From assembly GCA_963777495.1 (NCBI GenBank), contig CAVZQM010000001.1, forward strand, positions 195,537-259,536: a DNA stretch of 64,000 bases. Reading direction: 5' to 3'. The DNA is from an uncultured Actinomycetes bacterium (GTDB lineage Bacteria; Actinomycetota; UBA4738; HRBIN12). Shown piece after piece: positions 44,369 to 64,000 of the stretch (positions are counted from its first letter, which is position 1; every line of letters begins with the position of its first letter). A program made the position numbers and the translations under genes. Under the pieces are notes generated by a model. It made no database searches, was not told the origin of the DNA, and saw only the letters and a list, made by a program, of their open reading frames with translations.

Positions 44369-44409
44369 GAATCGCCGCCGTTCCACCACCTGTCTCGTAC
44401 GATGGACAC

Positions 44410-45679: not shown

Positions 45680-46165
45680 ATGAAGGCTGGCAAGATCTCA
45701 TACGCAGGTGTCGGCGTGGCCGTCGGCGGCGTGATCGGGTTCCTCGGCGTGATCGTGGGCTGGTTCAAGTACACGTACTCGCTGGGCGACGACACCGCGA
45801 CGGTCACCCTCAGCGGCACCCACGATTGGACCGGCACCGTCGCTCTGGCCGCGGCGTTCGGCGCGTTCGCGTTCGGTATCGCCTACGTGCTGTTGCAGGA
45901 TCCGCAGATGCGCCGGATCGCGGGCGTCCTCGGTGCCGTCTCCTCGGCGTTCCTGCTGATCATGTCGCTCTCCGGTTTCGCCCGGATCGGCGAAGCGGTC
46001 GGCGTGCCGGCGGCGGAGTTCACGACGGGCATGGGTACGGGCTTGGCGCTCTCGTTCGCCGGAGGAGTCATCGCGGTGGCGAGCTCGATCCTGGCTTCGA
46101 AGGAGATCCTGGCCGCAGGCCCGGTGCCGGCGGTCGAGGTGTCCGCGGAGCCCGTCGAGGCCTGA
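45680..46165 (+). CDS. hypothetical integral membrane protein
   Basis: RBS CAGGAGGGACC; four hydrophobic helices; intact 161-aa ORF. Confidence 0.55.
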   Translation: MKAGKISYAGVGVAVGGVIGFLGVIVGWFKYTYSLGDDTATVTLSGTHDWTGTVALAAAFGAFAFGIAYVLLQDPQMRRIAGVLGAVSSAFLLIMSLSGFARIGEAVGVPAAEFTTGMGTGLALSFAGGVIAVASSILASKEILAAGPVPAVEVSAEPVEA

Positions 46166-46195
46166 CGCACGAAGCTCCCGGTACCCTGAGCCTCC

Positions 46196-47446
46196 ATGTC
46201 GGAGGCACCGGAACCGCATCGCACGTGGTGGGCCCGCCCCGGACTCGATGTCCGGGGCGGTCGCCTGTCGGTCGCCGGTCGCGACGCCGAGTCCGTCGCT
46301 CGCGAGCACGGCACTCCGCTCTACGTCTATGACCTCACGCGCGTGTCGGAGCAGGCGCACGCGCTGCGATCCGCGTTCGAACGCGCCGGCCTGAACGGCC
46401 GCATCCGACTGGCACTCAAGGCCCAGCACGAACCCGAGCTCTTGCGGTTCGCGCGCGCACTCGGGGAGCCGGGTTCCCCGGGGAGCGTCGGTATGGACGT
46501 GTGCTCGCCGCGGGAGCTGGAGTGGGCGCTCGCGCACGGCTGGCGACCGGACGAGATCAGCTACACCGGCACGAACCTGTCCGAGCGCGACCTGGACGTG
46601 ATCCTGGCGCACCCGGACGTCCATCTCAACGTGGATCTCCTGACGCAGATCGATCGGGTCGGTCGCCGCGCGCCGGGTCGCGCGATCGGGATCCGCGTCA
46701 ACCCCCGGGCGGGTGTCGAGCACGGCGGGACCGCGCTCTACTCGGGCGCCCGTCCGACCAAGTTCGGCATCTTCGGCGAGCAGCTCGGCGAGGCGCTCGC
46801 CCTCGCGGGCCGGTACGACCTGACGATCGACACGGTCCATTTCCATGTCGGGGACGGTTACCTGAACGACGGGCTCGCAGACCTTGAGATGGTCGTTCGC
46901 CGGGTGGCGGACATGGTGCGCTCGCTGCACGAGCAGGGCTGTCAGATCGTCGAGGTCAACACCGGGGGCGGGCTCGGCGTGCCGCAACGCGCGGGTGACC
47001 GGCCGCTCGACCTCGATCGCTGGGCGGCCATCCTGGCGGAGCACTTCGGGCCGCTCGACGTCGTGGTCGGTACCGAGCCGGGGGACTTCCTGGTGAAGGA
47101 GTGCGCGATCGCTCTGGCGGAGGTGGTCACCGTCGAGGAGCGCGATGGCGTGCGGTTCGTCGGCGTCGACATCGGGTGGAACGCGATGGGCGAACGCTTC
47201 ATCTACCACTCGTTCCTCGACGTGGTGCTCTGCCGCGCCGCCGACGAGGCGCCGGCGCGCGAGGTGACGATCAGCGGGCACATCAACGAGGGTGACGACC
47301 TGTTCGCGGAGGACCTGCCCTTCCCGGACGTCACGGAGGGGGACATCGTCGCCGCGCTCAACGTCGGCAGCTACAACGCATCCATGACGTCGGAGCACTG
47401 TCTGCGGCCCGCGGCCGACGCCGTGTTCTTCGCCGAGCGCGCCTGA
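46196..47446 (+). CDS. PLP-dependent decarboxylase, Orn/DAP/Arg decarboxylase family 2 (diaminopimelate decarboxylase-like)
   Basis: Intact 416-aa ORF; TIM-barrel plus C-terminal beta domain; GGG(L)G and EPG motifs. Confidence 0.75.
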   Translation: MSEAPEPHRTWWARPGLDVRGGRLSVAGRDAESVAREHGTPLYVYDLTRVSEQAHALRSAFERAGLNGRIRLALKAQHEPELLRFARALGEPGSPGSVGMDVCSPRELEWALAHGWRPDEISYTGTNLSERDLDVILAHPDVHLNVDLLTQIDRVGRRAPGRAIGIRVNPRAGVEHGGTALYSGARPTKFGIFGEQLGEALALAGRYDLTIDTVHFHVGDGYLNDGLADLEMVVRRVADMVRSLHEQGCQIVEVNTGGGLGVPQRAGDRPLDLDRWAAILAEHFGPLDVVVGTEPGDFLVKECAIALAEVVTVEERDGVRFVGVDIGWNAMGERFIYHSFLDVVLCRAADEAPAREVTISGHINEGDDLFAEDLPFPDVTEGDIVAALNVGSYNASMTSEHCLRPAADAVFFAERA

Positions 47447-47451
47447 CCGAT

Positions 47452-48756
47452 ATGCTCGGCTCGATGAACGACGAACGCGTGTTGATCCGTGCCGGACGCC
47501 TCATCGACGTCGAGCGCGGGGAAGTGCTCACCGACCGCGTGATCGTCGTCGAGGGCGAACGCGTCGCCGACGTGCTGACCGAGTCACCGGCGGAGACGTC
47601 GTCGGCGACGATCGATCTCTCCGATCACACGGTGCTCCCGGGGTTGATGGACATGCATGCTCACATGGTCGGCGAGATGGAGACGGGGCTGGGTTACGCC
47701 GCCCTGGTGATGCGGACCCCGGCGCAGGAGGCCATGAGCGGCGTCCGGAACGCGCGTGCCACCGTCGAGGCAGGGTTCACGACCGTCCGCGACGTCGGGA
47801 CGTTCCGGGCATTCGTCGACTGCGCGCTGCGCGATGCGATCGACGCCGGCGACACGCCCGGGCCACGCATGATGTGCGCGGGGCCGTTCGTCACGGTGTC
47901 GGGCGGCGGCGGTGATGTGACCGGGCTCTCGCCCGATGTCGACGCCGTCGTGCCGATCGATCTCCGGTTCGGGGTCGCGAACTCCGTCGACGAGGTGCGC
48001 CAGCGTGTCCGGCGGATCCTCGGCGGTGGGGCGGACTTCATCAAGGTGATCGCGACCGGTGCGGTGCTCACCGAAGGAACCACACCGGGCGCGCCCGAGT
48101 TCACCGAGGACGAGATCCGCGCGGCCGTGGACGAAGCGGCGCTCTACGGCACGCATGTGGCCGCGCATGCGCACGGCGCCGAGGGGATCAAGCGCGCGGT
48201 GCGCGCCGGCGTTCGTTCGATCGAGCACGGCTCGTTGATGGACGACGAGTCGATCGAGCTCATGGCCTCGAACGGCACGTACCTGGTCGCCGACATCTAC
48301 TGCGGCGATTGGATCGCCGAGGAGGGCGCACGGGGTGGGTGGTCCGCCGATGTGATCCGGAAGAACGAAGAGACGACCGACGCCCAGCGCGAGGGCTTCG
48401 AGAAGTCCGTGAAGGCGGGCGTGACGATCGCCTACGGGACCGACAGCGGTGTGTATCCACACGCATGGGTCGGCAAACAGTTCGCGTACATGGTCCGGTA
48501 CGGCATGACGCCGATGGAGGCGATCCGCAGCGCCACGGTCGTCGCGGCCGAGTTGATGGGCTGGTCGGAACGGGTGGGCGCGCTTGCGCCGGGACGGTTC
48601 GCGGACCTGGTGGCGGTGACCGGCGATCCGCTCGAGGACATCTCGCTGCTCGAGTCGATCCCGTTCGTGATGAAGGGCGGCGCGGTCGTCAAGCGCGACC
48701 CGGCCTCAGCTGCGGGCTGGCCAGGATTGTTGACAGTCAACCAAACGACGCCATAG
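47452..48756 (+). CDS. amidohydrolase family protein (metal-dependent hydrolase)
   Basis: Intact 434-aa ORF; HxH metal motif (DMHAHMVGE); further His/Asp ligands typical of imidazolonepropionase/Xaa-Pro-dipeptidase-like amidohydrolases. Confidence 0.8.
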   Translation: MLGSMNDERVLIRAGRLIDVERGEVLTDRVIVVEGERVADVLTESPAETSSATIDLSDHTVLPGLMDMHAHMVGEMETGLGYAALVMRTPAQEAMSGVRNARATVEAGFTTVRDVGTFRAFVDCALRDAIDAGDTPGPRMMCAGPFVTVSGGGGDVTGLSPDVDAVVPIDLRFGVANSVDEVRQRVRRILGGGADFIKVIATGAVLTEGTTPGAPEFTEDEIRAAVDEAALYGTHVAAHAHGAEGIKRAVRAGVRSIEHGSLMDDESIELMASNGTYLVADIYCGDWIAEEGARGGWSADVIRKNEETTDAQREGFEKSVKAGVTIAYGTDSGVYPHAWVGKQFAYMVRYGMTPMEAIRSATVVAAELMGWSERVGALAPGRFADLVAVTGDPLEDISLLESIPFVMKGGAVVKRDPASAAGWPGLLTVNQTTP

Positions 48757-48791
48757 CCTCGCCCGAACGAGCGAGGAGCGAGGGTCGGACG

Positions 48792-50386
48792 ATGAGCTAC
48801 GACGCGATCGTCGTGGGCGGCGGACACAACGGGCTGGTGGCGGGCTTCTACCTCGCCCGGGCCGGGCTGCGCACCCTGATCCTGGAGCGTCGCGACATCG
48901 TCGGCGGCGCCTGCGTCACCGAGGAGTTCGCCCCGGGCTATCCGGGCGTCGACCGGGCGCCTACGTCTTGTCGATGCTCCGCGAGTCGATCTGGCGTGAC
49001 ATGCGGCTGGTGCAACGCGGCATCCAGGTCGACGCGGCCGGTCCCACGCTGAACGTCTTCCCCGACGGCGCGCACTACTACCTGGCCGACGACATGGACC
49101 TGACGCTCGCCGAGACGCGCCGATTCTCCACGCGCGACGCCGACGCCCTGGTCCGGCTCGAGGAGGACCTCGGCCGGCTGGCCGGTGCCGTGGTCCCGTA
49201 CTTCGAGCGGACCGCGCCGGACCCTCGCCTGCGGAGCGCGCACGACCTGCGCGAGCTGGCGCACGCCGGACGCCTGGCGCTCAAGCATCGTCGCGACCTG
49301 CTGGACCTGGCGTTCCTGTTCACCACGTCGGCCACGCAGTTCCTGGAGGAGCGGTTCGAGTCCGAGCACGTGATGGCCGCGATCGGGTGGCACGCGATCA
49401 ACGACAGCGTCGCCGGTCCCTCGACGCCCGGGACGGCGTTCGTGTTGTTGCACGATCACGCGAGCGAGGAGACGGGCGGCGGACCGCGCGCCTGGGGGTT
49501 CGTCCGCAGCGGGATGGGCCGGCTCACCGAGGTGATGGCCGATGCGGCGCGCGAGGCGGGGGCCGAGATCCGGACCGACGCGGAGGTCGAGCGCATCCTC
49601 ACCGTCGACGGCCGCGCGACGGGCGTCGCGCTCGCGAGCGGCGAAGAGATCCGCGCGTCGCGCGTGCTGTCCAACGCCGACCCCAAGCGGACGTTCTTGG
49701 GGCTGGTCGACGAACGCGATCTGCCCGACGCGTTCCTGGGATCGATCCGCGCGTACCGCTGCATGGGGACGAGCATGAAGATCAACCTCGCCGTGTCCGA
49801 GCTCCCGATGGTTCGCGGGCTCCCCGAGGGCGGCGTGCAGCCGTACCACACGGGCATCATGGAGATGAACCCGTTCATCCCCGAGATGGACATGCAGCAG
49901 GCACAGGCGCGGGCCGGCATCGCCGCCGATCCGGCGCACGTCGAGCTTTGCTTCCCGACGGTGCACGACCCGTCGCTCGCGCCGGAGGGCAAGCACGTGA
50001 TCACGATCGACGTGAACTCGCAGCCGTACGACCTGCGACACGACGATTGGGACGACCATCAAGGAGGCGCGGGCCGACGCCGCGATCGCGCAGATCGCGG
50101 AGGTGTTCCCGAAGCTCCCGGATCTGATCGAGCATCGACAGGTGCTGAGCCCGCTGGACCTCGAGCGGCTGATCGGGCTCACGGGAGGCCACGCCTTGCA
50201 CGGCGACATGTCGCCCGATCAACTCCTGTTCATGCGGCCGGTGCGCGGGTACGCGGACTACCGGACGCCGGTCCGGGGCTCTACCTCTGCGGCGCGGGCA
50301 CGCATCCCGGGGGTGGCGTCACCGGCGCCAACGGCCGCAACGCCGCGCGCGAGGTCCTGCGCGACGCGCACAAGAAGCTCGCGTAA
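48792..50386 (+). CDS. phytoene-desaturase-family (CrtI-like) FAD/NAD(P)-dependent oxidoreductase (frameshifted)
   Basis: N-terminal DAIVVGGGHNGL Rossmann motif; C-terminal …GLYLCGAGTHPGGGVTGANGRNAA…; frame switches near 48950, 50040 and 50275. Confidence 0.75.
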
Positions 50387-50403
50387 CTCACGAGCGCGAG
50401 TCG

Positions 50404-50932
50404 TCAGGCGGGCGCGCGGATCACGCGCGGCGCTCGCGGGAAGAACGACCTGCCACCACGCTCCTGCTTGCGGACGAGCTCGTTCGCGAAGATCCACTCG
50501 TGCTTGGGCAGCGGCTCGAGGCGCTCCACCTCGAAGAACGACTGCGGGCCCCCGCTCGTCGTCTCGTCGTCCTCGTCGTCCGGGTCGACATCGGGTATCG
50601 GTCTCGGCGGCGACCCGCCGTTCCTCGATCCACGTCGACGGCAGGAGGTCCGGCAGGTCGGGAGCCTCGGGTGCCACCCGCCGCGAGGAACGTGGCACGC
50701 CAGGTGACGGCCGGCACGGCGTCCTCGCCCGAGATCATCAGGAGGACGTCCATGCCGGCGGCCGCCACGTCGAGGTCGCCCGGGCTTCCGGCCGGGATGA
50801 CGACGCGGCCACTCCGGGCGCACACCGCGAGCGCGGCCTCCACGTGGCGCTGTGGGAGGCCGGCGAGCAGGACCCGCGCCTCGTGTTCCTCGTCATCCAT
50901 CCGACCCCCGATCATCCATGCGGGAGCGGCCA
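50404..50932 (-). CDS. hypothetical protein (frameshifted)
   Basis: Coding segments in three frames (MAAPAWMIGG…; …PEAPDLPDLLPSTWIEERR…; …SFFEVERLEPLPKHEWIFANELVRKQ…); no family recognised. Confidence 0.3.
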
Positions 50933-51054
50933 TCGTAGCGAAGAGGCTCTTGACCGGCGCCGAGGCATCCGTAGATTGTCGACAGTTCACAGCAGGAGGA
51001 CGGTCGACGCGTGCCGACGGTGCCGCGAGCCACCTGCGGAAGGGGGAAGCCGGG

Positions 51055-52558
51055 ATGGGTCGTGACGACGATTCGGCCGTGTACGCCGACGGGGAGGGCA
51101 GGCGCGGAGAGATCGACCGCCGCAGGTTCATCCGGATGGGGGTGGTCGGCACCGCGATGGCGAGCGCGATGCTGATGGACCGCGACCGCGAGGCGGGAGC
51201 GGCGGCGATGAAGCGCTCGACCGTCACCGGGGCTCCCCGCGCCGCCGGGCTGGTCGAAGCCGGGCCCGAGCTGGCGCTGCCGCCCGGGTTCAGCTACACG
51301 ACGTTCGGTGCGTTCGGATCGGCCATGACCGACGGGTTCATCACCCCGCCGATCCACGACGGCATGGCGGCGTTCGACATGGGTGACGGGACGCTGCGCA
51401 TCGTGCGCAACCACGAGCTCGGTGAGGGGAACGACGTCCCCGCCGGCACCGTGATCGGCGATCCGAAGACCGCGTACGACAAGAAGGCGCCGGGCGGAAC
51501 CGTCACGCTCGTGGTCGACGCCGCGACCGGGGAGCTGCGGTCCGACTGGATCAGCCTGAACGGGACCGACACGAACTGCGCCGGGATGCCGACGCCGTGG
51601 GGTACCTGGCTGACGTGTGAGGAGACGGTGGCCGGCGTGGACTCCGGACGGCTGAAGCCGCACGGCTACGTGTTCGAGGTGGATCCGTCCGCCGACGCGC
51701 CGACGAAGAGCAAGCCCTACAAGGCGATGGGGCGGTTCCTGCACGAGGCCGGCGCGGTCGATCCCGACACCGGCGTCGTCTACATGACCGAGGACGAGGG
51801 CCCGGACGGGTTCTACCGGTACCTCCCGAAGGATCCGGGCAACCTCGCGGCCGGCGGCACGCTCCAGATGCTCGCCGTCAAGGGCCAGCCGAGTACAACA
51901 CGATCGTCGGTCAGACGGTCGGCGACGTGCTGCCGGCGAACTGGGTCACGATCGACAACCCGGATCCCGGCCAACGCCGAAGACAACGCGTCCGCGGTGT
52001 TCCAGCAGGGTCGCGCCAAGGGCGCCGCGAAGTTCCTCGGAGGCGAGGGCGCGACGTTCCGCGACGGTGGCGTCGTCTTCGGCTCGTCCGACGGCGGCGA
52101 CGTCGGGACTCGGTCAGGTCTGGCAGTACACGCCGACGACCAACGTCGGGAAGAAGAACGAGGAGGGCGAGCTGGTCCTGTTGTTCGAGTCGACGGGTCC
52201 CGGCGTGCTCGACGGGCCGGACAACATGTGCACGAGTCCCGGCGGAGCGATCGTCATCGCCGAGGACGGCAACCTCAAGAGCAACTTCGTGCGTGCGTTG
52301 CTGCCCGACGGGAGCCTGATCACGGTCGCCGAGAACCTGGTGGGCGTGCAATGGCACTACATCGAGGCGTCGGGCAAGCTCTACGACCCGACGGTCCCCG
52401 ACGACGGTGCTTCCGCGGGCGACGGGATCGGTCACGCGGAGTTCGCAGGCCCCACGTTCAGCCCGGACGGGAAGTTCCTGTTCGTGAACATCCAGGTTCC
52501 CGGCATCACGTGCGCGATCACCGGCCCGTGGGCGAGCCTGGGCCTGCTGAGTCGATGA
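51055..52558 (+). CDS. phoX: PhoX-family (DUF839) phosphatase with Tat signal (frameshifted)
   Basis: RBS GAAGGGGGAAG; twin-arginine motif DRRRFIRMG; conserved …GYVFEVDP… and …DGPDNMCTSPGGAIVIAEDG… blocks; C-terminal part in a second frame. Confidence 0.7.
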
Positions 52559-53901
52559 CGGAGGACGTGCCCCGGATCGTCGCGACGCCGCCGGGCCCGA
52601 AGACACGGGAGATCCTCGCTCGTCAGGAGCGGGTGCTGTACCCGGGCCTCGCGCACGGTCTGGGGCCGTTCGTCATCAACCGCAAGTCCGGCTGGGAGAT
52701 CGAGGACGTCGACGGCAACGTCTACCTCGACTTCATCAGCGCGATGGCGTCGGTGCCGTTCGGCGCTGCGCGTCCCGACGTCGTGGAGCCGGTGATCGAG
52801 GCGCTCCGTCGCTACGGCAACGAGGACACGCACTACTACTCCAACGAGTACGTGCTGCCGCTCGCCGAGGAGCTGCTGCGCGTCGCGCCGGACGGACTCG
52901 ACGCGCGTCGACATCGCGCTGAACGGCACGGAGGCGGTCGAGACCGCCATCCGGTTCATGCGTCGCGCGACCGGTCGCCCGATCGTGATCGGGTTCATGG
53001 GCGGCTACCACGGCGAGACCGGCACCGCCGGGCGCGATCGGCGCGGAGACGTCCGATCTCTCGTTCGGCTACCGCGCGCTGATGTCCGGATTCGCCCACG
53101 TGCCCGTACCCGAACCCGTACCGAACCCCGTTCACCGCTCGTCCCGGCGGCACGGGCGACGGCACCGTCGACTACATCCGCGATCATCTCCTGCATCACG
53201 CGATCGATCCCCGCGAGGTCGCCGGCTTCGTGATCGAGCCGGTGCTCGGCAGCGGTGGCTGCGTGGCCCCTCCCGACGCGTTCTGGGCGGCGCTCGTCGA
53301 GCTCTGCCGGGAGTTCGACTTCCTCCTCTGCGCCGACGAGGTGAAGACCGGGTTCGGACGGACCGGTCACCTGTTCGCGGTCGAACGATGGGGCGTGCGG
53401 CCCGACCTGATGGCGCTCGGCAAGGCGATGGGCGGAGGCGTGATGCCGATCGGGGCGGTGCTCGGCACCGAGCGCGCCATGGGCTTCGACGATGTCTCGA
53501 CGGGCTCGACGTGGTCGTGGCTCCCGGCGGCCTGTGTGGCGGCGATCGAGACGCTCCGCGTCTTCCGCGAGGAGCCGCTCCTCGAGCACGTGCGCGAGCT
53601 GGACGCGGCTGCCCGGCGCGCGCTCGCGCCGCTGGCGGAGCGCTACGGAGCCATCGGGGACGTGCGCGTCACCGGTTGCTTCATCGCCATCGAGTTCGTG
53701 AAGGACCGTGTGACCAAGGAGCGGGACCTCGAGCTGATGGAACGGGTGGCATGGGGATGCATCCGGCGCGGGCTGCTCGCCGACGCGAGCACGACGTCGT
53801 TCAATCTCCAGCCGTCGCTCGTCACACCTGTCGACGTCCTGGAGCAGGGGATCGCGATCGTCGACGACGCGATCGCGGAAGCCGTCGGTTCGCCGGGATG
53901 A
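52555..53901 (+). CDS. class-III (PLP) aminotransferase (frameshifted)
   Basis: ATG overlaps the phoX TGA (ATGA); DEVKTGFGRTG and PLP-lysine motif LGKAMGGG; three frames. Confidence 0.8.
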
Positions 53902-53919
53902 TCGAGGGGTACCCGCGCG

Positions 53920-55068
53920 TCAGATGCCCACGGTGAACCGCGCGAGCACGGCCGCGTCGATCGCGCGTTCGTCCAGCTCCACCCCGAGCCCGGTGCCCTC
54001 GAGGGGTCCGACCGTCCCGTCGGCGTCCATCTCGAGCGGCGTCGTCACGCCCCACTCGAATTCCTCGGACGGCACCGCTCGTTCGAAGAAGCTGGTCCGG
54101 CAGAACGCGAGCATCACGTGGAGGTTCGCGGCCTGCACCGGCGTCTGGCCGTAGCTGGTCACCTCCACGTCCAGCCCGAACGCCTCCGCGACATCGAACA
54201 CCCGGAGCGCGGACGTGATGCCTCCCGCGAACGTCACGTCGAACCGCATCGCCGACCACGGCGGGTCTCGCATGATCTCCGTCATCAGACGGGGATCCCA
54301 GATCGCGTCGCCGGCCGGGATGATCGGGACGCGCCCGATCCGCACGAGCCGGCGGTACCCCTCCAGGTCGAGGTCGGGCAGCGGCGCCTCGAACCACCGG
54401 ACGCCGAGGTCTCCGAGCTCGCTCGCCATGCGTTCGGCGGCGTCGCGCTCCAAGCACCCTTCGGCGTCGTAGATCAACGCCATGTCGTCGTCCGCGCCGC
54501 GAGCGGCGCGGACGGCCTCGAGGTCGCGGTCCGGATCGCCCCAGGCGTGGATCTTCGCGGCGGTGTACCCCTCGGCGCGGCGGCGGACGACCTCGTCCGC
54601 ATAGGCCTCCGGGCGCCCGAGCGTGGGGAGCGAGGCATACGCCGGGAGTCGCTCCACGCCGCGGTGCTCGGGAGCGATCAGCCGGTGCAGCGGCAGGCCG
54701 GCGCGGTGGGCGGCCAGGTCCCACAGGGCGATGTCGATCGCGGAGCGGACACCCGGCATGTCGGGTGCGGTCCCGTGGTCACGGAGCTCGTCCCAGATGG
54801 CCCGCCGCTCCCGGGGGTCCCGGCCGATCACGCGGGGAGCGATCGTCCGGAGCGTCTCCAGCGGTGCCAGGTCGAACGCGCCGTAGCTGTCCGAATCGAA
54901 CTGGCCGAGGCCGGTGACCCCGTCGCCGTCTGTGACGCGCACCAGGGTGCTGGTCGTGAATGGAGCCGGAAGGTGGCTCGTGTACGCGTGACGGGGCAGG
55001 TCTGGACCGAGCGCCAGCACCTCGATGCGCTCGACCGGCGATCCGGGCTCCTCGGCTGCGTTTGTCAA
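53920..55068 (-). CDS. mandelate racemase / muconate lactonizing enzyme family (enolase superfamily) protein
   Basis: Intact 382-aa ORF (TTG start); capping domain plus TIM-barrel with KxK and metal-ligand Asp/Glu residues (…AAKIHAWG…ALIYDAEG…). Confidence 0.85.
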   Translation of the reverse strand: MTNAAEEPGSPVERIEVLALGPDLPRHAYTSHLPAPFTTSTLVRVTDGDGVTGLGQFDSDSYGAFDLAPLETLRTIAPRVIGRDPRERRAIWDELRDHGTAPDMPGVRSAIDIALWDLAAHRAGLPLHRLIAPEHRGVERLPAYASLPTLGRPEAYADEVVRRRAEGYTAAKIHAWGDPDRDLEAVRAARGADDDMALIYDAEGCLERDAAERMASELGDLGVRWFEAPLPDLDLEGYRRLVRIGRVPIIPAGDAIWDPRLMTEIMRDPPWSAMRFDVTFAGGITSALRVFDVAEAFGLDVEVTSYGQTPVQAANLHVMLAFCRTSFFERAVPSEEFEWGVTTPLEMDADGTVGPLEGTGLGVELDERAIDAAVLARFTVGI

Positions 55069-55085
55069 CGGTTAACTGTAGGCTA
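55062..55085. promoter_or_regulatory. candidate operator (AT-rich AACGGTTAACTGT) in the divergent MR/MLE and SMP-30 promoter region
   Basis: Its reverse complement ACAGTTAACCGTT matches ACAGTTTACAGTT upstream of the GntR gene at 11 of 13 positions; the only AT-rich island in the 55.07-55.39 kb intergenic region. Confidence 0.25.
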
Positions 55086-55168
55086 TCAAGCCGTCGATGG
55101 AATCCGTTCGCGATCTCGCTGTCCCTCCCGGCTCGGTCCTGCATCGAGAGGCCCCGATGCCGCTCGAC

Positions 55169-55393
55169 CTGGAACGGCGGCCCACCCCCAACGGTGGGCA
55201 CCATCTGCACGGCGACATGTCGCCGGACCAACCGCTGTTCCTGCGGCCGGTGCGCGGCGACGCGGACTACCGGACGCCGGTGTCGCGGTTGTATCTGTGG
55301 GGCGCGGGCACGCACCCGGGCGGGGGCGTGACCGGCGCCGACGGGCGCAACGGCGCGCGTGAGCTGCTCCGCGACGTCAGAGGGAGACGTTGA
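55169..55393 (+). pseudogene. 3' remnant of a CrtI-like oxidoreductase paralog
   Basis: Encodes …GGHHLHGDMSPDQPLFLRPVRGDADYRTPVSRLYLWGAGTHPGGGVTGADGRNGARELLRD…, about 70% identical to the C-terminus of the 48792-50386 gene; no N-terminal Rossmann domain; stop overlaps the SMP-30 ATG. Confidence 0.5.
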
Positions 55394-56241
55394 TGCTCGA
55401 CCGGTTCGACGAACTCGCCGAAGGGTTGAACCATCCGGAGGGCGTCACGTGGAACCCGTTCGACGGGTTGGTCTACGCGGGTGGAGAAGGAGGCGAGCTG
55501 TACGCGATCACGCTCGATGGCGAGGTCGAGCAACGCGGCGCCACCGGTGGTTCGATGCTGGGGCTCGCGGTGGACGGCGCGGGGCGCGTGTACGCCTGCG
55601 ATGCCGGCAACGGCGAGATCGTGCGGCTGGACCCGGCCTCGGGTGTGGTCGAGATCTACGGACGTGGCGTCGGGGGCGACGATCTCGACACGCCGAACGT
55701 CGCGGCGTTCGGTCCCGACGGGATGCTCTACGTGACGTGTTCCGGAGAGGACGATCGCCCCGAGATCGTCCGGATCGTGCCCGGTGCCGACGGCGATCGG
55801 CGGACCGAGCGCTGGAGCGCCGACGTGCCGCGGTACCCGAACGGGTGCGTGGTGACGACAGACGGTTCCGCGCTCATCGTCGTCGAGGCGAAGGCGGAGC
55901 GGGTCGTTCGCGTGCCGATCCTGCCGGACGGGGTTGCCGGCACCCCCGAGGTCATCGCCGACCTCCCCGACACGGATCCCGACGGGCTTGCGATCGCCGC
56001 GGACGGCGCGTACTGGGTGACGTTGTATCGTCCGGACGGCTTGTTGCGGATCGCGCCCGACGGCACCGTGGCTACGGTCGTCGACGACCACCTCGCGTCG
56101 ACGTTCGACGCGCCGACGAACATCGCCTGGGTCGGCCCGGCACTCGACCGAGTCGTCGTCGCGAACGTCGGCGACCGCTTCCTGTCGATCGGCGACGTCG
56201 GGGTGACCGGACTACCGCTCCATCATCCGGAGGTGCCGTGA
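55393..56241 (+). CDS. SMP-30/gluconolactonase/LRE family protein
   Basis: Intact ORF; six-bladed beta-propeller lactonase signatures (…EGVTWNP…, …PNGCVVTTDG…, …DGLAIAADG…). Confidence 0.85.
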   Translation: MLDRFDELAEGLNHPEGVTWNPFDGLVYAGGEGGELYAITLDGEVEQRGATGGSMLGLAVDGAGRVYACDAGNGEIVRLDPASGVVEIYGRGVGGDDLDTPNVAAFGPDGMLYVTCSGEDDRPEIVRIVPGADGDRRTERWSADVPRYPNGCVVTTDGSALIVVEAKAERVVRVPILPDGVAGTPEVIADLPDTDPDGLAIAADGAYWVTLYRPDGLLRIAPDGTVATVVDDHLASTFDAPTNIAWVGPALDRVVVANVGDRFLSIGDVGVTGLPLHHPEVP

Positions 56242-57060
56242 TGGCCCGCTACACCGACCGGAACGTGATCGTGACCGGAGGGGCTCAAGGCATCGGGCGC
56301 GGCATCGTCGAGGCGTTCCTCGCCGAGGGGGCGCACCGTCTTCGCCGCCGACATCCGCGCCGACGGGCTCGAGGGTATGCGCGCGGCGCAGGCCGAGCCC
56401 GATCGCGTGCGCACCCACGCCGTCGATCTCTCCGACTTCGAGGCCGCAAAGGCGATGGCGCGCGCTGCGATCGAGGAGCTCGGACACATCCACGTGCTGG
56501 TCAACTGCGCCGGGGTCATGCCCGGCGGCCCGCTGATCGACGTGTCGCGGGAGACGTTCGACCTGACGTTCGCGGTCAACGCCCGCGCGCCCATGGCCAC
56601 GATGCAGGTCGTGGCCGCCCACATGGCCGAACACGGAGGCGGCGCCATCGTGAACATCGCGTCGGCGAACGCGTTCAAGAACGAATCGCCCGAGGCGCCG
56701 TACAACGCGTCCAAGGCGGCGCTGGTCGCGCTCACCAAGGCGGCGGCCCACGAGTGGGGCCACCTCAACATCCGCGCCAACTGCGTCGCGCCGGGGCAGA
56801 CCACGACCCCGGAGGAAGAGATCGAGATCGCGTCCGATCCGGACGAGGCGCGTCTCCAACGCGACTACCTGATGCGGATCCCGCTGCGGCGGGCTGGGGC
56901 GCCGCACGATCAAGCAGCCGCGGTGTTGTTCCTGGCGTCCGACGAGGCCGCATGGATCAGTGGACAGACGTTGATCGTCGACGGCGGCGAGCTCGGCGGC
57001 GGCGATTGGTACGACCCGGCCGACGCGCCGCCCATCCCCGACGAGGGGCAGTCCTCGTGA
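56241..57060 (+). CDS. SDR family oxidoreductase (one frameshift)
   Basis: ATG overlaps the SMP-30 TGA (TGATG); TGGAQGIGRG cofactor motif, NASK…YNASKAA (YxxxK) catalytic motif; shift near 56330. Confidence 0.8.
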
Positions 57061-57073
57061 GCGCGGGACACCG

Positions 57074-58328
57074 ATGAGCGCAGCCACCGCTCCGGCTCCG
57101 GTCCTGGAGCTCGCCACGTTCCGCGTCGACGACGTCGTGGAGGGCCGAGCGACGTCGTGGCTGAACGGACGGCTGGAGCTCGACGTCGGAGCGCTCGCAG
57201 ACGCGGCGTCGGAGCCGGCGCTCGCCGACGTGCGGATCGACGTCGTCCGTCCGGGGGACCCGGTGCGGATCGCCAACGTCCTGGACGCGGTCCTGCCGGA
57301 CGTGAAGGCCGACGATCCGGACCGAACGTTCCCCGGTGCGCTCGGCTCGCTGACGATCGCCGGTCGCGGACGGACGAACCGGCTCGACGGCGTCGCCGTC
57401 CTCTCCGTCTGCGACTGGCTCGCCGCGGGCTACACGCAACCCGACGAGTTTCCGGACGCGCTCGTCGACATGGCGGGTCCGGGCGCGGAGGTGACGCGGT
57501 GGGGACGCACGATCGACGTCGTGGTCCGGTGCGTCCCGTCGGCCGGCGCGCCCATCGGGGACGTCGACCGTGCCGTGCGACGCGCGTCGCTCCGTGTCGC
57601 GCGCGATCTGGCCGCGGCGACGATCGATCGTGAGGCGAGCGAGGTCGCGACGCTGGAGCGTCCGCGCGCCGGCGTCGATCCCGCGCTCCCATCGGTCGGC
57701 GCGATCCTCCAGGTGGCGTCGGAAGGCCCGCTGACCGACACGTTCCTCTACGGCCGCGCGGTCGGCGGGATCGTGCCGACGCTGCTCGACGCGAACGAGG
57801 TGCTCGACGGGGCGCTCACGAACGGCGCCTACGACTGGGCGTCGGTTCGCAACGTGACCGCGAACTATCAGGATTCGTCGCTCGTCCGCACGCTCCTGGC
57901 CGGTCACGGCGAACGGCTGGCGGTTCGCCGGCTTGATCCTGGCGCTCGGCTACCTGGATACGCGCGTTCGAGAAGCAGCGGTCGGCCATGCTCTCCGCCC
58001 GCCTCGCCAGGTCGTTGGGCGCCGACGGCGTCGTGTGCACGACGTTCTCGTCGGGCAACTCGCACACCGACACGATGCTCACGGTGCGCGCGTGCGAATC
58101 GCTCGGCATCCGCACCACGGCCATCATCAGCGAGACGAACGGCGGGCTCACGGATCACGTCCCTGAGGCGGACGCCATCGTGAGCGTCGGCAACGAGGAC
58201 GAACTGATCGAACCCGTGGACGCCGGAGCGCGTGGTGGGTGCCGAGCGAGCCCGTGCGCGGCGGGCGAGCCGGTCCCGCTCTGGGCGTACCTGGGCGCGA
58301 CCGTGGCAGACGGGCGACATGGCGCTGA
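57074..58328 (+). CDS. grdE: glycine/sarcosine/betaine reductase component B alpha/beta proprotein (GrdE/PrdA family; frameshifted; 3' end approximate)
   Basis: DVVRPGDPVRIANVLDAVLPDVK region parallels ELARPGESVRIIPVKDVIEPRVK of clostridial GrdE; internal Cys-containing segment VVCTTFSSGNSH in a second frame; a +1-frame TGA at 58326-58328 is taken as the end. Confidence 0.65.
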
Positions 58329-58341
58329 CGGCGGTGCCGGC

Positions 58342-59635
58342 ATGACGGTCGTCCATTACCTCAACCAGTTCTTCGCCGGGCTGGGCGGCGAAGAGGCCGC
58401 GAGCCAGGAGCCGGTGCGGATCGAGGGCGCGGCCGGTCCCGGCCGGGGACTCGTGGCGGCCGGGCTCGAGATCGACGTGACGCTCGCGTGCGGCGACGAC
58501 CGGTTCGGTGAGCACGAGGCGGAGTCGCTCGCGCGTCTGCTGAGCGTGGCTGGACGAGATCCGGCCCGACGTCCTGGTGTGCGGTCCGTCGTTCGGATCC
58601 GGCCGTTACGGCTACGCGTGCGGTTCGCTCGCGCGCGAGGCGGGGAGGCGCGGCATCCCGGTCGTGTCCGGCATGACGCCCGACAGCCCCGGCGTGCTGG
58701 CGGCCGAAGGCGCCGCGTACATCGTCCCGACGGGGCCGAACGTCGCGAGCATGCGCACCGCGCTCCCCGTGATCGCGAGCCTCGCCGGCCGGCTGGCGAC
58801 GGGCGAGCCGGTCGGATCACCCGAGGACGAGGGATACCTGCCGCGCGGTCTCCGCACGAACGTTCACGCCGACAGGACGGGCGCGGAGCGCGCGCTCGAC
58901 CTGCTGCTGGCCAAGCTCGGCGGCGACGTCCGCTCCGAGGTCGTCCCGAGCGGCGACCGCGTGGCACCGCCTGCCGCGGTCACCGGATGTGGCGACGGCG
59001 ACGCCTCGCGCTGGTCACCGAGGCCGGCTGCGTCCCGCAGGGGAACCCCGACCGGCTGCCGACGCGGCACGCCAACGTGTGGCTGCGGTATCCGATCGAC
59101 GGCGTGGCGACGTTCGCCGCGGGCGCCTACGAGTCGGTGCACGCCGGGTTCGACACCACGGCCGCGAACGCCGACCCGAACCGGCTGGTGCCGCTCGACG
59201 CGGTGCGCGAGCTTGAGGCGGGAGGGCCGGATCGGTTCGTTGCACGACCGGTTCTACACGACGACCGGTGTCGACACGCCGGTCGCCACGTCGGCCAAGT
59301 TCGGGCGCGAGATCGCGGAGGAACTGCGGGATGCCGGGGTCCAGGCCGTCATCCTCACCGGAACCTGAGGCACAGGCACGCGTTGCGGGGCAACGCTTGC
59401 GAAGGAGATAGAGCGGATGGGGATCGCGACGGTGTTCGTCACGGCGCTCCCGACCATCGCGCAGATGGTCGGGGCGAACCGGGTGCTGCGTGGGGTGTCC
59501 ATCACCCATCCCACCGGGGACCCGTCCCTGTCCGTGGGTGATGAGCGCGCCCTTCGCCGCCGCGTCGTGGAGCGCGCCCTCGAGCTGCTCGCCACGGATG
59601 TCGGCCCGGGCACCGTGTGGGAGGTGCCGGCATGA
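58342..59635 (+). CDS. grdB: glycine/sarcosine/betaine reductase selenoprotein B (in-frame TGA = Sec at 59366-59368; internal frameshifts)
   Basis: GRDB-family N-terminus MTVVHYLNQFFAGLGGEE. The ORF track splits it into two ORFs, but TGA 59366-59368 is in frame with the downstream 72-aa ORF (59417-59635). The joined sequence reads …AVILTGT-U-GTGTRCGATLAKEIERMGIATVFVTALPTIAQMVGANRV…, where GrdB-type proteins carry U. A SECIS-like hairpin lies 12 nt downstream. Confidence 0.7.
59380..59396 (+). other. SECIS-like hairpin downstream of the grdB UGA
   Basis: GCGTTG-CGGGG-CAACGC: 6-bp perfect stem with G-rich apical loop, starting 12 nt after TGA 59366-59368. Confidence 0.4.
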
Positions 59636-60949
59636 CGGGCCGCGACGTCGCGATCACCGGCGCGTCGTTGACGTTGCAGCACGTTCCCGACCTGGTCCGG
59701 TACGGCTCGAAGCCGCGGCGCGAGCACGAGCGGCTCCCGCAGGTCGGTGACGCGCTGCGGAGCTTCAGCGACGCCGTCAGCTATCCGCCGAACCAGGTGT
59801 TCATCGGGAACGCGGACCCAGGCATCCTGCGGGAGCTGCCGCGTCCCTGGTGGCGAGATGCCCCTCCCGGGGACCCGCGCGGCGCCTTCGGCGACATCCT
59901 GGATCAGGCGACGTTCTACGAGCTCCTCGCCGAGCTCGACCAGTTCGAGCTCGTGCGCCTGAAGGAGGAGCCGCGTCCCGGCGAGCTGCCCGCTGTTCGA
60001 CGGCGCGGACGTCGTGGGCGCGTTCGCGGCGGCCCACGAGGCCGATGAGTCGCTGTCGGCGCACGTGCTCCTGGAGAACCTGGCGTGCAAGGCCGGCGCG
60101 GTGCACGCGACGCGGCACCTGCTGGCGGCGACCGGCGTCGACCCGGCGTCGATCCCGTACGTGATCGGCGCGGGGGAGGAGGCGATCGGCGACCGGTATC
60201 AGCGCGGCGGAGGCAACCTCGGCAAGGCGGTCGCCGAGGCGGCGGGACTCACCGAGGCGAGCGGCTGCGACATCAAGGCGTTCTGTGCGGCGCCGATCCA
60301 CGCGCTGGTGGTCGCCGGCGCGCTTGGTGTCGGCGGGCGTGTACGACCGGGTGGCGGTCGTCGCCGGCGGCGCGCTGGCCAAGCTCGGCATGAAGTTCGA
60401 GGGTGCGCTCGAGCACGACGATGCCGATCCTGGAGGACGTGCTCGCGAGCATGGCGATCCTCGTCGAGGCGGCGGCGAGATCGTGCGGGCCGGTGATCCG
60501 GATGGACGCGGTCGGGCGTCACCGCGTGGCGGCGGGAGTCGTCCCAGCAGGCGTTGCTGGAGGACATCGTCGGCGCGCCGCTCGCGGCGATGGGGCGAAC
60601 GATCGCCGACGTCGACGTCTACGCCACCGAGCTCCACAACCCGGAGATCACGGAGTCGTCGGGCGGAGGCGACGTCCCCGACCGGAACTACCGCATGCTC
60701 GCTGGGCTCGGCGTGGTGCGCGGCGATCTCACCAAGGAGGAGCTCCTCCCGTTCGTCCGTTCGCACGGGCTGCCGGGCTTCTCACCGACGCAGGGGCACA
60801 TCGCGTCGGCGATCCCGTGGCTTCCGCACGCGTTGCGGGCGTTCGAACGCGGCGATCTGCACACGACGATGTTGATGGCGAAGGGCAGCCTGTTCCTCGG
60901 CCGGATGACGCGGCTCTGGGACGGAGCTTCGATCACGTTGGAGGGATAG
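59632..60949 (+). CDS. grdC: glycine reductase complex component C-like protein (GrdC/GrdD family; frameshifted)
   Basis: ATG overlaps the grdB stop (ATGA); N-terminus …TLQHVPD…SFSDAVSYPPNQVFIGN… parallels GrdC; thiolase/KAS-like C-terminal part (…GHIASAIPWLPHA…) in two further frames. At 439 aa it may be a truncated GrdC or a GrdC/GrdD fusion. Confidence 0.6.
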
Positions 60950-61309
60950 ATGGCGACGGAAGCGACCGTGGAGACGTTCACCGAGCTGGTGAAGGAAGGG
61001 CACGTCCTGCTCGACGTCTGGGGACCGGACTGCGCCCCGTGTATGGCGATGATGCCGGCCGTCGAGGCCCTAGAGGACAAGTACGAGGGGCGCATCACGC
61101 TGCTCAAGCTGAACGCGCCGGAGAACCGACAGGTGTGCCGGGACATGCGCGTCGCCGGGCTTCCCACGTACATCACGCTCCGCGACGGCGGCGAGGTCGA
61201 ACGGGTTACCGGCAACGGCGCCACGATCGCCGACATCGAGGCCGCGATCGAGCGGCTCCTGGCCGGCGCACCGGTGACCGGGCTCCCGGTGCCGGAGCAC
61301 CTGCGGTAA
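60950..61309 (+). CDS. trxA: thioredoxin (CxxC = CAPC), grd-cluster associated
   Basis: Intact 119-aa ORF; RBS TGGAGGGA; WGPDCAPC active site; follows the grdC stop directly. Confidence 0.8.
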   Translation: MATEATVETFTELVKEGHVLLDVWGPDCAPCMAMMPAVEALEDKYEGRITLLKLNAPENRQVCRDMRVAGLPTYITLRDGGEVERVTGNGATIADIEAAIERLLAGAPVTGLPVPEHLR

Positions 61310-61357
61310 GGCCGGCAGCATCCTGCGATCTGAGTGAGGGAGGTGAGGACGGACGAG

Positions 61358-61816
61358 ATGGAACTCAAGGGCAAGAAGGTGATCGCGCTCGGCGAGCGAG
61401 ACAGCGTCCCCGGCGAAGCCATCGCCGCGGTGGCGCGGTCGGCGGGCGCCGAGGTGATCGAGACGCGCACGGAATGCTTCGTCTGAACCGCTTCCGGCGC
61501 CATGGATCCAGAGAACCAGGGGTTGATCAAGCGCATCGCCGACGAGCTCGGGACCACCGATCTCGTCGTGATCCTCGGAGCGGCCGACGCCGAAGCGGTC
61601 GAGGTCGCCGCGGAGACGGTGCGTGAAGGCGATCCCGCGTACGTGGGTCCGTTGGCCGGGGTCCAGTTGGGCCTCCCTGTGTGGCACATCTTCGAGGACG
61701 AAGTGAAAGACCAGGCCGATCCTGCGGTCTACGAGGAGCAGGTCGGGTTCTTCGAGCTGTCCTTCGACACCGAGAGCGTGAAGGAAGCGATGAAGCGGGC
61801 TCGGGGGGAGACGTGA
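61358..61816 (+). CDS. grdA: glycine/sarcosine/betaine reductase complex selenoprotein A (in-frame TGA = Sec at 61484-61486)
   Basis: RBS GAGGGAGGTGAGGA. Translation reads [54 protein letters not shown]…GDPAYVGPLAGVQLGLPVWHIFEDEVK…, closely matching clostridial GrdA (TECFVUTSAGAMD…; AGPLAGVQLGL). Without readthrough only a 42-aa peptide would result. Confidence 0.85.
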
Positions 61817-61930
61817 TCACCCTCCGCGCGGAAGAACCCACGGCTGCGCGGGCCCGCTCGCGGGGCTCGCACCTGCGGAGATGCCGATGGGACGCCGTTC
61901 CCGCCGCTCCCGGCCCCTTGCTTTGCCAGC

Positions 61931-61950
61931 GGTTGACAGTTTACAGTTCC
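61931..61950. promoter_or_regulatory. candidate promoter/operator upstream of the gntR-SBP-permease operon
   Basis: TTGACA (-35-like) at 61933-61938 overlapping tandem ACAGTT-T-ACAGTT; AT-rich island 65 nt upstream of the GntR start. Confidence 0.3.
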
Positions 61951-62015
61951 CCGTGAGCCCCAGGAACATGGGTTCGGACGAGGCGAGCCGGAGGGTTCGC
62001 CGGGAGGAGGGGTCG

Positions 62016-62723
62016 ATGAGCGAGACCACCAGCGCAGCCACGTTGCGGCCCCTCGACGCGCCTCGGTCCTTGGCCGAGGACGCGGCCGACCGGATCCGTG
62101 AGCAGATCCTGGCGGGCGGCTTCGCGCAAGGGGAGCATCTGGTGGAGGCGCGGATCGCGGAGCAGCTGAACGTCAGCCGCGGTCCCGTCCGCGAGGCGTT
62201 CAAGCTCCTGCGATCCGAGGGACTCCTGTTGGAGGAGCCGCGCCGAGGCACGTTCGTCGTGAGCCTCTCCGCCGACGACGTCCGGGAGATCTACAGCCTC
62301 CGGGCGGCGATCGAAGGCCGGGCGGCCCGGTTGCTCGCCGCCAAGCAGGACGTGGCTGCGGTCGCCGAACTGCGCGGGCTGCTTTCCTCGATCGAAGCCG
62401 CGGCCGCCGCGGGCGACGTCGCCGCCGTGTACCGGCAGGACCTGGCCTTCCACGACGCGGTGTGCCGGCTCTCGGGCAACGCGCGGCTGCACGAGGTCTT
62501 CGCGCGCTACGTGCCCATGTTGCGGGCGCTGCTGCACGTGGACGAACGCATGCAGGACTCGCTCGCCGCCGTCGCGGAACAGCACCGACCCATCGTCGAT
62601 GCCATCGACGCCGGCGACGTCCAGGGCGCCATGACGCACACCGAGCATCACTGCGATCAAGCCGGAGAGCTGATCGCGGCGTACCTCGACTCGCTACCGG
62701 AACGCAACGAGGAGGAACGATGA
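62016..62723 (+). CDS. GntR family transcriptional regulator (FadR/FCD subfamily)
   Basis: Start at ATG 62016 with RBS GGGAGGAGGGG; wHTH (…AEDAADRIREQILAGGFAQGEHLVEARIAEQLNVSRGPVREAF…); FCD effector-binding domain. Confidence 0.85.
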   Translation: MSETTSAATLRPLDAPRSLAEDAADRIREQILAGGFAQGEHLVEARIAEQLNVSRGPVREAFKLLRSEGLLLEEPRRGTFVVSLSADDVREIYSLRAAIEGRAARLLAAKQDVAAVAELRGLLSSIEAAAAAGDVAAVYRQDLAFHDAVCRLSGNARLHEVFARYVPMLRALLHVDERMQDSLAAVAEQHRPIVDAIDAGDVQGAMTHTEHHCDQAGELIAAYLDSLPERNEEER

Positions 62724-63832
62724 CGAGCCGTCGGATCCGGGGTTTCGCGCTGCTGGTGTCGGTGTTCGCACTCATGGCCGCCGGCTGTTCGTCCGGCGAT
62801 CCGGAAGACGGCGACAGTAACACCGCCACTCCCTCCGGCGCGGGGTCCGTCACCCCGTCGGGCACGCTTCGGCTCTTCTCCTATAGCGATGGCTTCGACC
62901 CCGCGTACATGGAGTCGTTCTACGAGGAGTACCCCGACATCGATCTCGAGACGGCGTCGTTCGGCAGCAACGACGAAGCCGTCGCGAAGCTCCAGGCCGG
63001 ATTCCAGGCGGACGTGATCAATAGCTGTGTCGACGAAGCCACGCTCGAGATGGTGAACAAGGGTCTCTATGCGCCGCTCGATGTCTCGCGTCTGGAGAAC
63101 TGGGACGACATCTGGCCGTCGATGAAGGCGCTTCCGGGGGTCCAGGTCGACGGCGAGGTCTACCTCGTACCTGCCGACGCGGGCACGGCGGGGATCCTGT
63201 ACAACGCGGACGTCGTGACGACACCCCCCACGTCGTGGCTCGATCTGTTCGATCCTCAGTGGGCCGGGAGGGCTTCCATCGAAGACCTCTCCGTCACCGC
63301 GATCGACATCGGAGCGTTGGTGAACGGGATCTCCGATCCGTTGACCATGTCCTCGGATCAGCTCGAACTGGTCAAGAACTACCTGATCGATCACCGCGAT
63401 CAGTTCCGGACGTTCTGGAAGGGTGCGGCCGACATCAAGTCGCAGTTCAAGTCCGGCGAGGTCGTGATCGCGTCCGGCTATCCCGACTACGCCAAGCAGC
63501 TTCGCCGGGAAGGTGTCAACGCGCAGTTCGCCGTCGCCGAGGAAGGCCAGATGCTGTGGACGTGCGGCTACGGCATCAGTCCGGATGCGGAGAACCTCGA
63601 TGCTGCCTACGCGTTGCTCAACTGGTATTCGAGCGTGCCGCCGCAGGTCTACGCGGCGACGGAATTCGACTACATCACGTCGAACATGACCGTGGGCGAC
63701 CTGCTGACCCCGGAGGCGATCGCGAACTCCGGTCTCGACACGTTCGGTCAGGCGACCAACGCGATCCCGGCGAGTCCCCCCAACGATCGCGAGGCCTGGG
63801 TCGCGGCATGGACCGAGGTGAAGGCCTCCTAG
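62720..63832 (+). CDS. ABC transporter substrate-binding lipoprotein (PotD/spermidine-putrescine-like, SBP family 1)
   Basis: ATG overlaps the gntR stop (ATGA); lipobox LMAAGCSS; intact 370-aa periplasmic-binding-protein fold. Confidence 0.85.
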   Translation: MTSRRIRGFALLVSVFALMAAGCSSGDPEDGDSNTATPSGAGSVTPSGTLRLFSYSDGFDPAYMESFYEEYPDIDLETASFGSNDEAVAKLQAGFQADVINSCVDEATLEMVNKGLYAPLDVSRLENWDDIWPSMKALPGVQVDGEVYLVPADAGTAGILYNADVVTTPPTSWLDLFDPQWAGRASIEDLSVTAIDIGALVNGISDPLTMSSDQLELVKNYLIDHRDQFRTFWKGAADIKSQFKSGEVVIASGYPDYAKQLRREGVNAQFAVAEEGQMLWTCGYGISPDAENLDAAYALLNWYSSVPPQVYAATEFDYITSNMTVGDLLTPEAIANSGLDTFGQATNAIPASPPNDREAWVAAWTEVKAS

Positions 63833-64000
63833 TGGCACAGGTCGCGCACCCGATCGGTCTGGACACCGCGGGGTCGGCGGTACCCGTTTCCATCCGGATC
63901 CATCGTGCCCTCAACCGCTGGGGATGGCGCGGTTTCCTCGGGATCGTGTTCCTGACGCTGTTCGGACCGCTCGCGATCCTCGTGGCGTTCTCGTTCAACG
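63833..64000 (+). CDS. ABC transporter permease (PotB-like), 5' partial at window end
   Basis: GTG directly after the SBP stop; hydrophobic N-terminal helix (…FLGIVFLTLFGPLAILVAFSFN); runs off the window. Confidence 0.5.

Follow-up and report, generated by a model that had tools for sequence, protein, structure and literature searches.

Selenoenzymes of the Grd family are a textbook trait of anaerobic amino acid fermenters (Clostridia, Synergistota and spirochaetes), and the presence of their genes in the DNA of an uncultured, high-GC soil actinomycete raises the question of what kind of enzyme they encode there, and whether the copy at hand is intact. The stretch analyzed here (contig CAVZQM010000001.1 of assembly GCA_963777495.1), hereafter the window, is 64,000 nucleotides long, and the genes occupy positions 57074-61816 of its + strand in the order grdE-like, grdB-like, grdC, a thioredoxin gene (trx) and grdA. 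In our estimation they form, with a probability of roughly 0.7, a functional-type selenocysteine (Sec, U)-dependent Grd-family reductase operon, preceded by an SGL and an SDR gene and carrying Sec in the grdB-like and grdA products, whose frame breaks in the window are assembly errors. The gene identities, the Sec columns and their conservation, the grdB hairpin, the missing Cys residues, the lack of a nearby grdD and the pattern of the frame breaks come directly from the sequences, whereas the proposals made below on the chemistry, on the class of substrate and on what becomes of the acetyl group are drawn from homology and from missing residues.

Gene content and selenocysteine codons

The Pfam search of the window returned, in this order, PF09338 (GrdE-type), PF07355 (GRDB), a thioredoxin and PF04723 (GRDA). 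The grdE-like gene (57074-58345; 421 aa after correction of the frame breaks treated below) encodes the alpha subunit of protein B and matched PF09338 in two frames (183.7 and 60.4 bits), while a search of the PDB sequences with its product gave nothing at E ≤ 1. The grdB-like gene (58342-59635; 340 aa, U and 88 aa after correction) encodes selenoprotein B and matched PF07355 in four consecutive profile segments lying in alternating frames; an intact relative of this gene (P0001) is 96% identical. Between this gene and trx lies grdC (59632-60949; 437 aa corrected), encoding the beta subunit of component C: it is 99% identical, over its in-frame part, to its orthologue in L001 (ENA ERZ25039494:contig_35016), a related locus ~99.3% identical to the window over positions 53250-64000, and that orthologue reached 519.6 bits on the NCBIfam model NF040746 (cut-off 450). 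Its Pfam domains, ACP_syn_III and DUF5940, are those of canonical GrdC, and it is 40-43% identical to GrdC of E. gilvus. The dedicated thioredoxin (60950-61309; 119 aa, PF00085, 61.9 bits) has a CAPC active site and is identical to the L001 protein, its best NCBIfam match being the clostridial TrxA at 85.6 bits, under the cut-off of 140. Finally, grdA (61358-61816) is intact, encoding selenoprotein A as 42 aa, U and 109 aa (PF04723, 197.6 bits), and exceeds the equivalog cut-off of NF040748 (200.8 bits vs. 130). The equivalogs of D-proline reductase were missed by both subunits (18 bits vs. 700 for PrdA and 84.5 vs. 300 for PrdB).

The preliminary description of this DNA had presented these genes as a Grd-type cluster of five translationally coupled genes. 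The Pfam and NCBIfam results, which include matches to PF09338, PF07355 and PF04723, the families that it had named for a search, agree with the gene identities, and the junctions are indeed tight, with an ATGA overlap at both grdE/grdB and grdB/grdC, grdC and trx abutting, and a gap of 48 nt between trx and grdA; the reading frames, however, are not intact, as grdE, grdB and grdC contain 15 frame-breaking insertions that had gone unreported. The GC content is ~0.70-0.73 across the cluster region.

Two TGA codons, at 59366-59368 in grdB and 61484-61486 in grdA, lie in frame, and in alignments with annotated public records both fall on the Sec columns of the characterized families, namely those of GrdF from E. 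acidaminophilum and of GrdH and GrdA from E. gilvus. The placement of the two codons at Sec positions is thus upheld, and the misalignment that had been named as refuting it was not seen. The Sec site of the window GrdB reads GT-U-GTGTRCG as compared to the canonical ST-U-GTCTRCG, while in GrdA, whose canonical site reads ECFV-U-TAAGAMD, the CxxU motif of the window protein (ECFV-U) stands in the same column. Relatives were collected by scanning one genome per GTDB species, which yielded 247, and the counts on Sec codons, gene order and sequencing platform rest on the best 80 loci. Among these, the codon at the Sec position is TGA in 80/80 grdB and 71/71 grdA sequences, never replaced by a sense codon or by another stop, and protein conservation runs on in frame downstream of it.

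Could the two TGAs nonetheless be true stops, leaving a truncated GrdB and a truncated GrdA followed by small separate open reading frames (ORFs), with no Sec inserted? Gene callers do treat the TGA as the end of the homologues, with predicted products of 340 aa and 42 aa, and the genes for Sec insertion were not found in the window, which is what such a reading would expect. The invariance of the codon, its exact coincidence with the Sec columns and the conservation beyond it speak against true stops, as does a hairpin located after the grdB UGA (59380-59396). In the minimum free energy fold this structure starts 11 nt past the UGA and consists of a 7-bp stem with a GGG loop; its core pairs are unbroken in 76 distinct sequences, and pair 18-28 is U-A in 39 of them and C-G in 36. 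Judging from this alignment, the hairpin is similar to a selenocysteine insertion sequence (SECIS) and shows compensatory change. The machinery for Sec decoding, moreover, adjoins the cluster in one relative (L033), where grdE is preceded, at a distance of 3.3 kb, by a tRNA-SeC gene, while selB, selD and selA follow 3.3-7 kb downstream of grdA. That the TGAs act as ordinary stops is therefore scarcely credible, and the conservation of the TGA, the covarying grdB hairpin and the L033 genes together argue for Sec decoding in this lineage. The L033 locus itself (MFD05502.bin.1.113, GrdB 72% identical to that of the window), with tRNA-SeC at 5275-5371 and selB/selD/selA at 16786-20772, has the appearance of a self-contained Sec island.

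Frame breaks in the window copy

In the window, grdE, grdB and grdC are not continuous ORFs: successive segments of the Pfam profiles match in different frames, each step being +1. In L001, on the other hand, grdB (340 aa before the TGA), grdC (437 aa) and the SDR gene are all intact. With respect to L001, the window has one extra base in the SDR gene (G at 56333), six in grdE (57917, 57963, 58216, 58247, 58259 and 58304), four in grdB (58545, 58985, 59000/59001 and 59220) and five in grdC (59992, 60322, 60419, 60476 and 60539/60541), whereas one base is missing from grdC near 60486-60489. All the indels are thus of a single base, 16 of them insertions and one a deletion, and taking out the former and restoring the latter opens the reading frames of SDR (272 aa), GrdE-like (421 aa), GrdB (340 aa, U and 88 aa) and GrdC (437 aa) with zero nonsense codons.

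Such a pattern might be read as a genuine pseudogene cluster, in which the frameshifts are real and the reductase is being lost in this strain. The loss of GrdB and GrdA is documented in the evolution of selenoproteomes (PMC1794560), the 16 insertions are concentrated in SDR, grdE, grdB and grdC while the 3 kb upstream and trx/grdA are clean, and most insertions lie outside homopolymers. The balance between insertions and substitutions is nevertheless hard to reconcile with decay. In a four-way alignment of the window, L001 and the more distant L003 and L006, the window alone had the 15 insertions of grdE, grdB and grdC, together with only 5 substitutions of its own in 3.9 kb (54 were unique to L001). 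Natural decay should leave deletions and larger indels side by side with substitutions, whereas neither nonsense codons nor multi-base indels were found here, and insertions exceeded deletions by 16:1. L001 likewise carries a private extra base of its own in grdE, and dense patches of indels elsewhere.

The sequencing platform offers a further line of evidence. Split cluster genes occurred in 11/37 loci from Nanopore metagenome-assembled genomes (MAGs) of the Microflora Danica (MFD) and in 0/43 loci from short-read MAGs (Fisher p = 8e-5), so that among the relatives the breaks are confined to Nanopore MAGs; the MFD genomes are Nanopore-only Flye assemblies with a single round of Medaka polishing (PMC12313526). 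Breaks of the same type also affect window genes unrelated to the cluster, i.e., moaC (between 37940 and 37975), an AAA_16 regulator and an aminotransferase (53030 and 53103). According to a segmentation of reading frames with a hidden Markov model, frame switching is patchy and +1-biased, affecting 20-43 kb and 48.7-53.1 kb and leaving other 20-kb stretches clean; this segmentation and the sliding frame plot of third-position GC serve as a rough map only, since close shifts are merged and the intact moeA was wrongly flagged. The AAA_16/adenylate-cyclase regulator is split around 40400-40700, and the stretches 1-19400 and 43600-48700 look clean.

In view of the insertion/substitution ratio, the ORFs free of nonsense codons, the link with the platform and the frameshifts in unrelated genes, the pseudogene interpretation was rejected as quite improbable, and the frame breaks are most likely consensus errors of a Nanopore-only metagenome assembly rather than gene decay. 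In sequence of this kind an intact operon can take on the appearance of a group of pseudogenes, and a frame-aware comparison is needed before decay is called. As a separate observation, the window over 48395-53100 is only ~93% identical to L001 (1-4770), with ~120 indels, whereas from 53250 on the identity is ~99.3%; a mosaic or recombined region, or a patch of low quality in one or both assemblies, could be the cause.

Departures from the characterized reductases

If the operon is functional, on what does its enzyme act? The alpha subunit offers a first indication. The GrdE/GrdG proprotein is cleaved at Cys242, within the SGNC-xxC site, to generate a pyruvoyl group (PMC9908766, PMC10838667), while FarE and GrdI have been described as unprocessed, the processing cysteines being missing (PMC10838667). 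The window protein, aligned to A. noterae GrdE and E. acidaminophilum GrdG, reads NGAY-DWAS, with Tyr at the column of the cleavage Cys and Ser at that of the second one; Tyr is kept across ~75 relatives, in which the second Cys is replaced by Ser, Ala or Gly. Since Tyr stands in place of the cleavage Cys of SGNC-VxxC, the GrdE-like subunit is, by its sequence, not a Cys-pyruvoyl proprotein, resembling in this GrdI (Phe at the site) and FarE, and the earlier designation of this gene as a pyruvoyl proprotein is not supported.

The beta partner departs from the canon as well. The motif of selenoprotein B is UxxCxxC (PMC13188914); in the window, as in each of the 80 relatives, it is UxxGxxC (U-GT-G-TR-C), and the Ser of STUG is changed to Gly. 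As to the remaining partners, tblastn of the window and of 85 loci, the latter covering ~10 kb around the cluster, detected no homologue of GrdD (PF02504), TrxB or GrdX (for GrdD, two proteins were used as queries at E ≤ 1e-3), and PF02504, the canonical GrdD family, was absent from the tables of neighboring genes, so that the lack of grdD and trxB in the window, already noticed in the preliminary description, is borne out.

Among the nearest systems for comparison is the glycine reductase complex of Peptoclostridium (Eubacterium) acidaminophilum and Acetoanaerobium sticklandii (GrdA, GrdB/GrdE, GrdC/GrdD, TrxA/TrxB), with which the window cluster shares the CxxU of GrdA, the Sec column of the GrdB family, the domains of GrdC, the thioredoxin encoded within the operon and the two in-frame UGAs. 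Unlike it, the window cluster has an alpha subunit devoid of both cysteines of SGNC-xxC, a GrdB with GT-U-GTGTRC in place of ST-U-GTCTRC and 44-47% identical to the characterized GrdB, no grdD, grdX or trxB nearby, another gene order, and a high-GC soil actinomycete as host. Betaine reductase GrdH/GrdI (e.g., the pCR1A locus of Enterococcus gilvus, L087) has GrdA, GrdC and Trx in common with it, and its alpha subunit is likewise not of the Cys-pyruvoyl type (Phe in GrdI, Tyr in this clade); however, the GrdH model was matched at 378 bits only (cut-off 775), with an identity of 40%, GrdH has the UxxCxxC motif, and the window cluster lacks the grdD, trxB and BCCT transporter of the GrdHI loci. 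Sarcosine reductase GrdF/GrdG (E. acidaminophilum, L086) provided the top-scoring NCBIfam models for both B subunits (418 bits for GrdF and 165 for GrdG), yet these scores are far under the cut-offs of 800 and 780, and GrdG has the Cys site SGNCVAPC that this clade is without. A further parallel comes from Cloacibacillus porcorum, whose fluoroacetate reductase FarB/FarE exemplifies a protein B of the Grd type with an X-CH2-COO- substrate that is not an amine; in this enzyme FarE lacks the two processing cysteines, as here, and FarB lacks the conserved CxxC after the Sec (PMC10838667), of which this clade retains the second Cys (UxxGxxC); the FarE model was reached at 110 bits only (cut-off 675), and both the phylum and the gene neighborhood differ.

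By homology with these systems, the GrdE-like/GrdB-like pair would constitute the substrate-specific protein B, binding a substrate of the X-CH2-COO- type. The Sec of the GrdB-like subunit would attack the alpha-carbon, with release of X, and the carboxymethyl group would be transferred as a selenoether to the Sec of GrdA (CxxU), from which GrdC would turn it into an acetyl thioester. The Se-S bond left on GrdA would then be re-reduced by the thioredoxin of the operon (CAPC). Because the alpha subunit lacks the pyruvoyl-forming Cys and GrdB the first Cys of UxxCxxC, activation of the substrate probably proceeds without a Schiff base, by analogy with betaine reductase (GrdHI) and fluoroacetate reductase (FarBE); given the missing carbonyl cofactor, primary and secondary amines that require a Schiff base are improbable substrates. 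Since none of the relatives has grdD close to the cluster, release of the acetyl group may bypass the canonical acetyl-phosphate step that depends on GrdD, or else grdD may lie elsewhere in the genome.

It was previously stated that the pair could not be assigned to glycine, sarcosine or betaine, and the equivalog models lead to the same conclusion: the GrdB-like protein remained below the cut-offs of GrdF (418/800 bits), GrdB (394/602) and GrdH (378/775), reaching only the subfamily model TIGR01918 (427 bits, cut-off 65), and the alpha subunit remained below those of GrdG (165/780) and FarE (110/675). An ordinary glycine, sarcosine or betaine reductase devoted to Stickland-type energy conservation, with grdD and trxB located elsewhere and the differences due to phylogenetic drift, would still be compatible with GrdA and GrdC exceeding their equivalog cut-offs and with the names given to homologues by automated annotation (JGI: "betaine reductase" or "glycine reductase"). 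In Actinobacteria, trxB normally lies elsewhere in the genome. An unprocessed alpha subunit matches the betaine-type GrdI (PMC10838667). The GrdB-like protein, however, is 40-47% identical to GrdB, GrdF and GrdH, which are 47-60% identical among themselves; the Cys cleavage site kept in the glycine and sarcosine enzymes is lost, the UxxCxxC of GrdH is UxxGxxC, grdD was not found near any cluster, and in place of a BCCT-type betaine transporter the neighborhood contains a PotD-type ABC (ATP-binding cassette) transporter, aminotransferases, amine oxidase, SDR, SGL and MR/MLE genes. We therefore regard an ordinary reductase as unlikely, and glycine or sarcosine, on the grounds of the residues discussed above, are likely not the substrate.

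In the subgroup of the window, the genes recurring around the cluster encode SDR, SGL, an FAD amine oxidase, a class-III aminotransferase, an MR/MLE enzyme, a PotD-type ABC transporter and a GntR regulator. Such a set suggests that the compound is derived from an amine and imported, without giving its identity. In the window, an SGL (SMP-30/gluconolactonase-like) gene (55390-56241, + strand; PF08450, 80 bits; protein 99.3% identical to that of L001) abuts the SDR oxidoreductase gene (56241-57060, + strand; 272 aa once the extra base at 56333 is dropped, matched by tblastn in frames 3 and 1), whose L001 orthologue exceeds the cut-off of NF005559 (223 bits vs. 215). Both lie directly upstream of grdE and probably belong to the same operon, with SGL as its first gene; the SGL family is found near the cluster in 23 loci. 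A divergent gene of the MR/MLE enolase superfamily is located further upstream (53920-55068, - strand), and a GntR/FCD regulator and a PotD-type solute-binding protein follow downstream (62016-63832, + strand). The MR/MLE, SGL, SDR, GntR/FCD and PotD-type genes are met again around the cluster in 14-29 related loci, in some cases in a different arrangement.

Several points weigh against the reading of the locus as a functional-type, Sec-dependent operon with a substrate of its own. No convincing SECIS was found in grdA, where RNAalifold on 63 sequences gave no structure, and neither the per-group folds nor a 5-bp stem chosen by hand surpassed shuffled sequences; neither SECIS nor any other Rfam family was matched within the cluster, the only matches in the window being a tRNA-Ala and ASdes. 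The genes selA, selB, selD and tRNA-Sec were not found in the 64-kb window. The location of most insertions outside homopolymers is unusual for Nanopore errors, and they cluster in grdE, grdB and grdC between clean flanking genes; their assessment rests on assembled sequences. The substrate class rests on missing residues, and the betaine enzyme GrdH retains the UxxCxxC that this clade is without. Lastly, the absence of GrdD holds within ~10 kb of the cluster.

Distribution among soil Actinomycetota and significance

All the 247 relatives belong to uncultured Actinomycetota (Actinomycetes, Thermoleophilia and Gaiellaceae/Gaiellales). All five genes stand in the order grdE-grdB-grdC-trx-grdA in 68/80 loci, nine others being cut by contig ends and three having the grdE-grdB pair only. 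The latter (L026, L040 and L068, each at about 8700-11300) lack grdC-trx-grdA. L068 shares a MAG with L064, and L010 with L011, and some genomes therefore hold several protein-B paralogues, like the Firmicutes that use multiple substrates. In the Gaiellaceae-type loci (L055-L085) the cluster occupies a conserved slot between tRNA-Pro(TGG) and tRNA-Gly(TCC), which suggests vertical inheritance within this group. The sole tRNA of the window is a tRNA-Ala(CGC) at 43006-43082 (+ strand), and tRNA-Ala(CGC) is also found near the cluster in L018 and L054.

Far from the cluster, the window has a match to ASdes, the mycobacterial desaturase-antisense sRNA of Rfam (9343-9410, + strand; 48 bits, gathering score 40), which lies inside, and antisense to, an FA_desaturase_2 (DesA-type) gene (8793-9824, - strand). 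Of the genomic context initially described, comprising F420-dependent enzymes and DesA and checked here marginally, these two features were seen.

In the literature collection searched, no paper connected Gaiellales, Thermoleophilia or soil Actinomycetota with glycine reductase. Symbiobacterium thermophilum, formerly placed in the Actinobacteria, has since been moved out of them. It was the sole "actinobacterial" case in the selenoproteome surveys, in which most of the GrdA and GrdB listed came from Clostridia, Deltaproteobacteria and spirochaetes (PMC1794560). Glycine reductase is unmentioned in the Microflora Danica genome paper (PMC12313526). The existence of the genes is thus on record in the automated annotations, while the clade and its deviations appear undescribed.

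An architecture of A, B and C components with two Sec codons is conserved over hundreds of uncultured high-GC soil Actinomycetota, among which canonical parts are missing, namely the pyruvoyl carbonyl, the first Cys after the Sec of GrdB and, in the vicinity of the cluster, the GrdD that forms acetyl phosphate. Tentatively, and with somewhat less than an even chance of being right, we propose that soil Actinomycetota (Actinomycetes, Thermoleophilia and Gaiellales; at least 247 GTDB species) harbor an undescribed branch of the Grd family operating without pyruvoyl group and GrdD, in which Sec would serve to cleave an X-CH2-COO- compound, possibly an N-substituted glycine originating from imported amines, for catabolic or detoxifying purposes and not for Stickland-type phosphorylation. 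If the enzyme is active, it would represent a new substrate class for the Sec-dependent reduction of C-X bonds, imply a selenium requirement for abundant soil bacteria, and provide a test case for what GrdC is capable of without GrdD.

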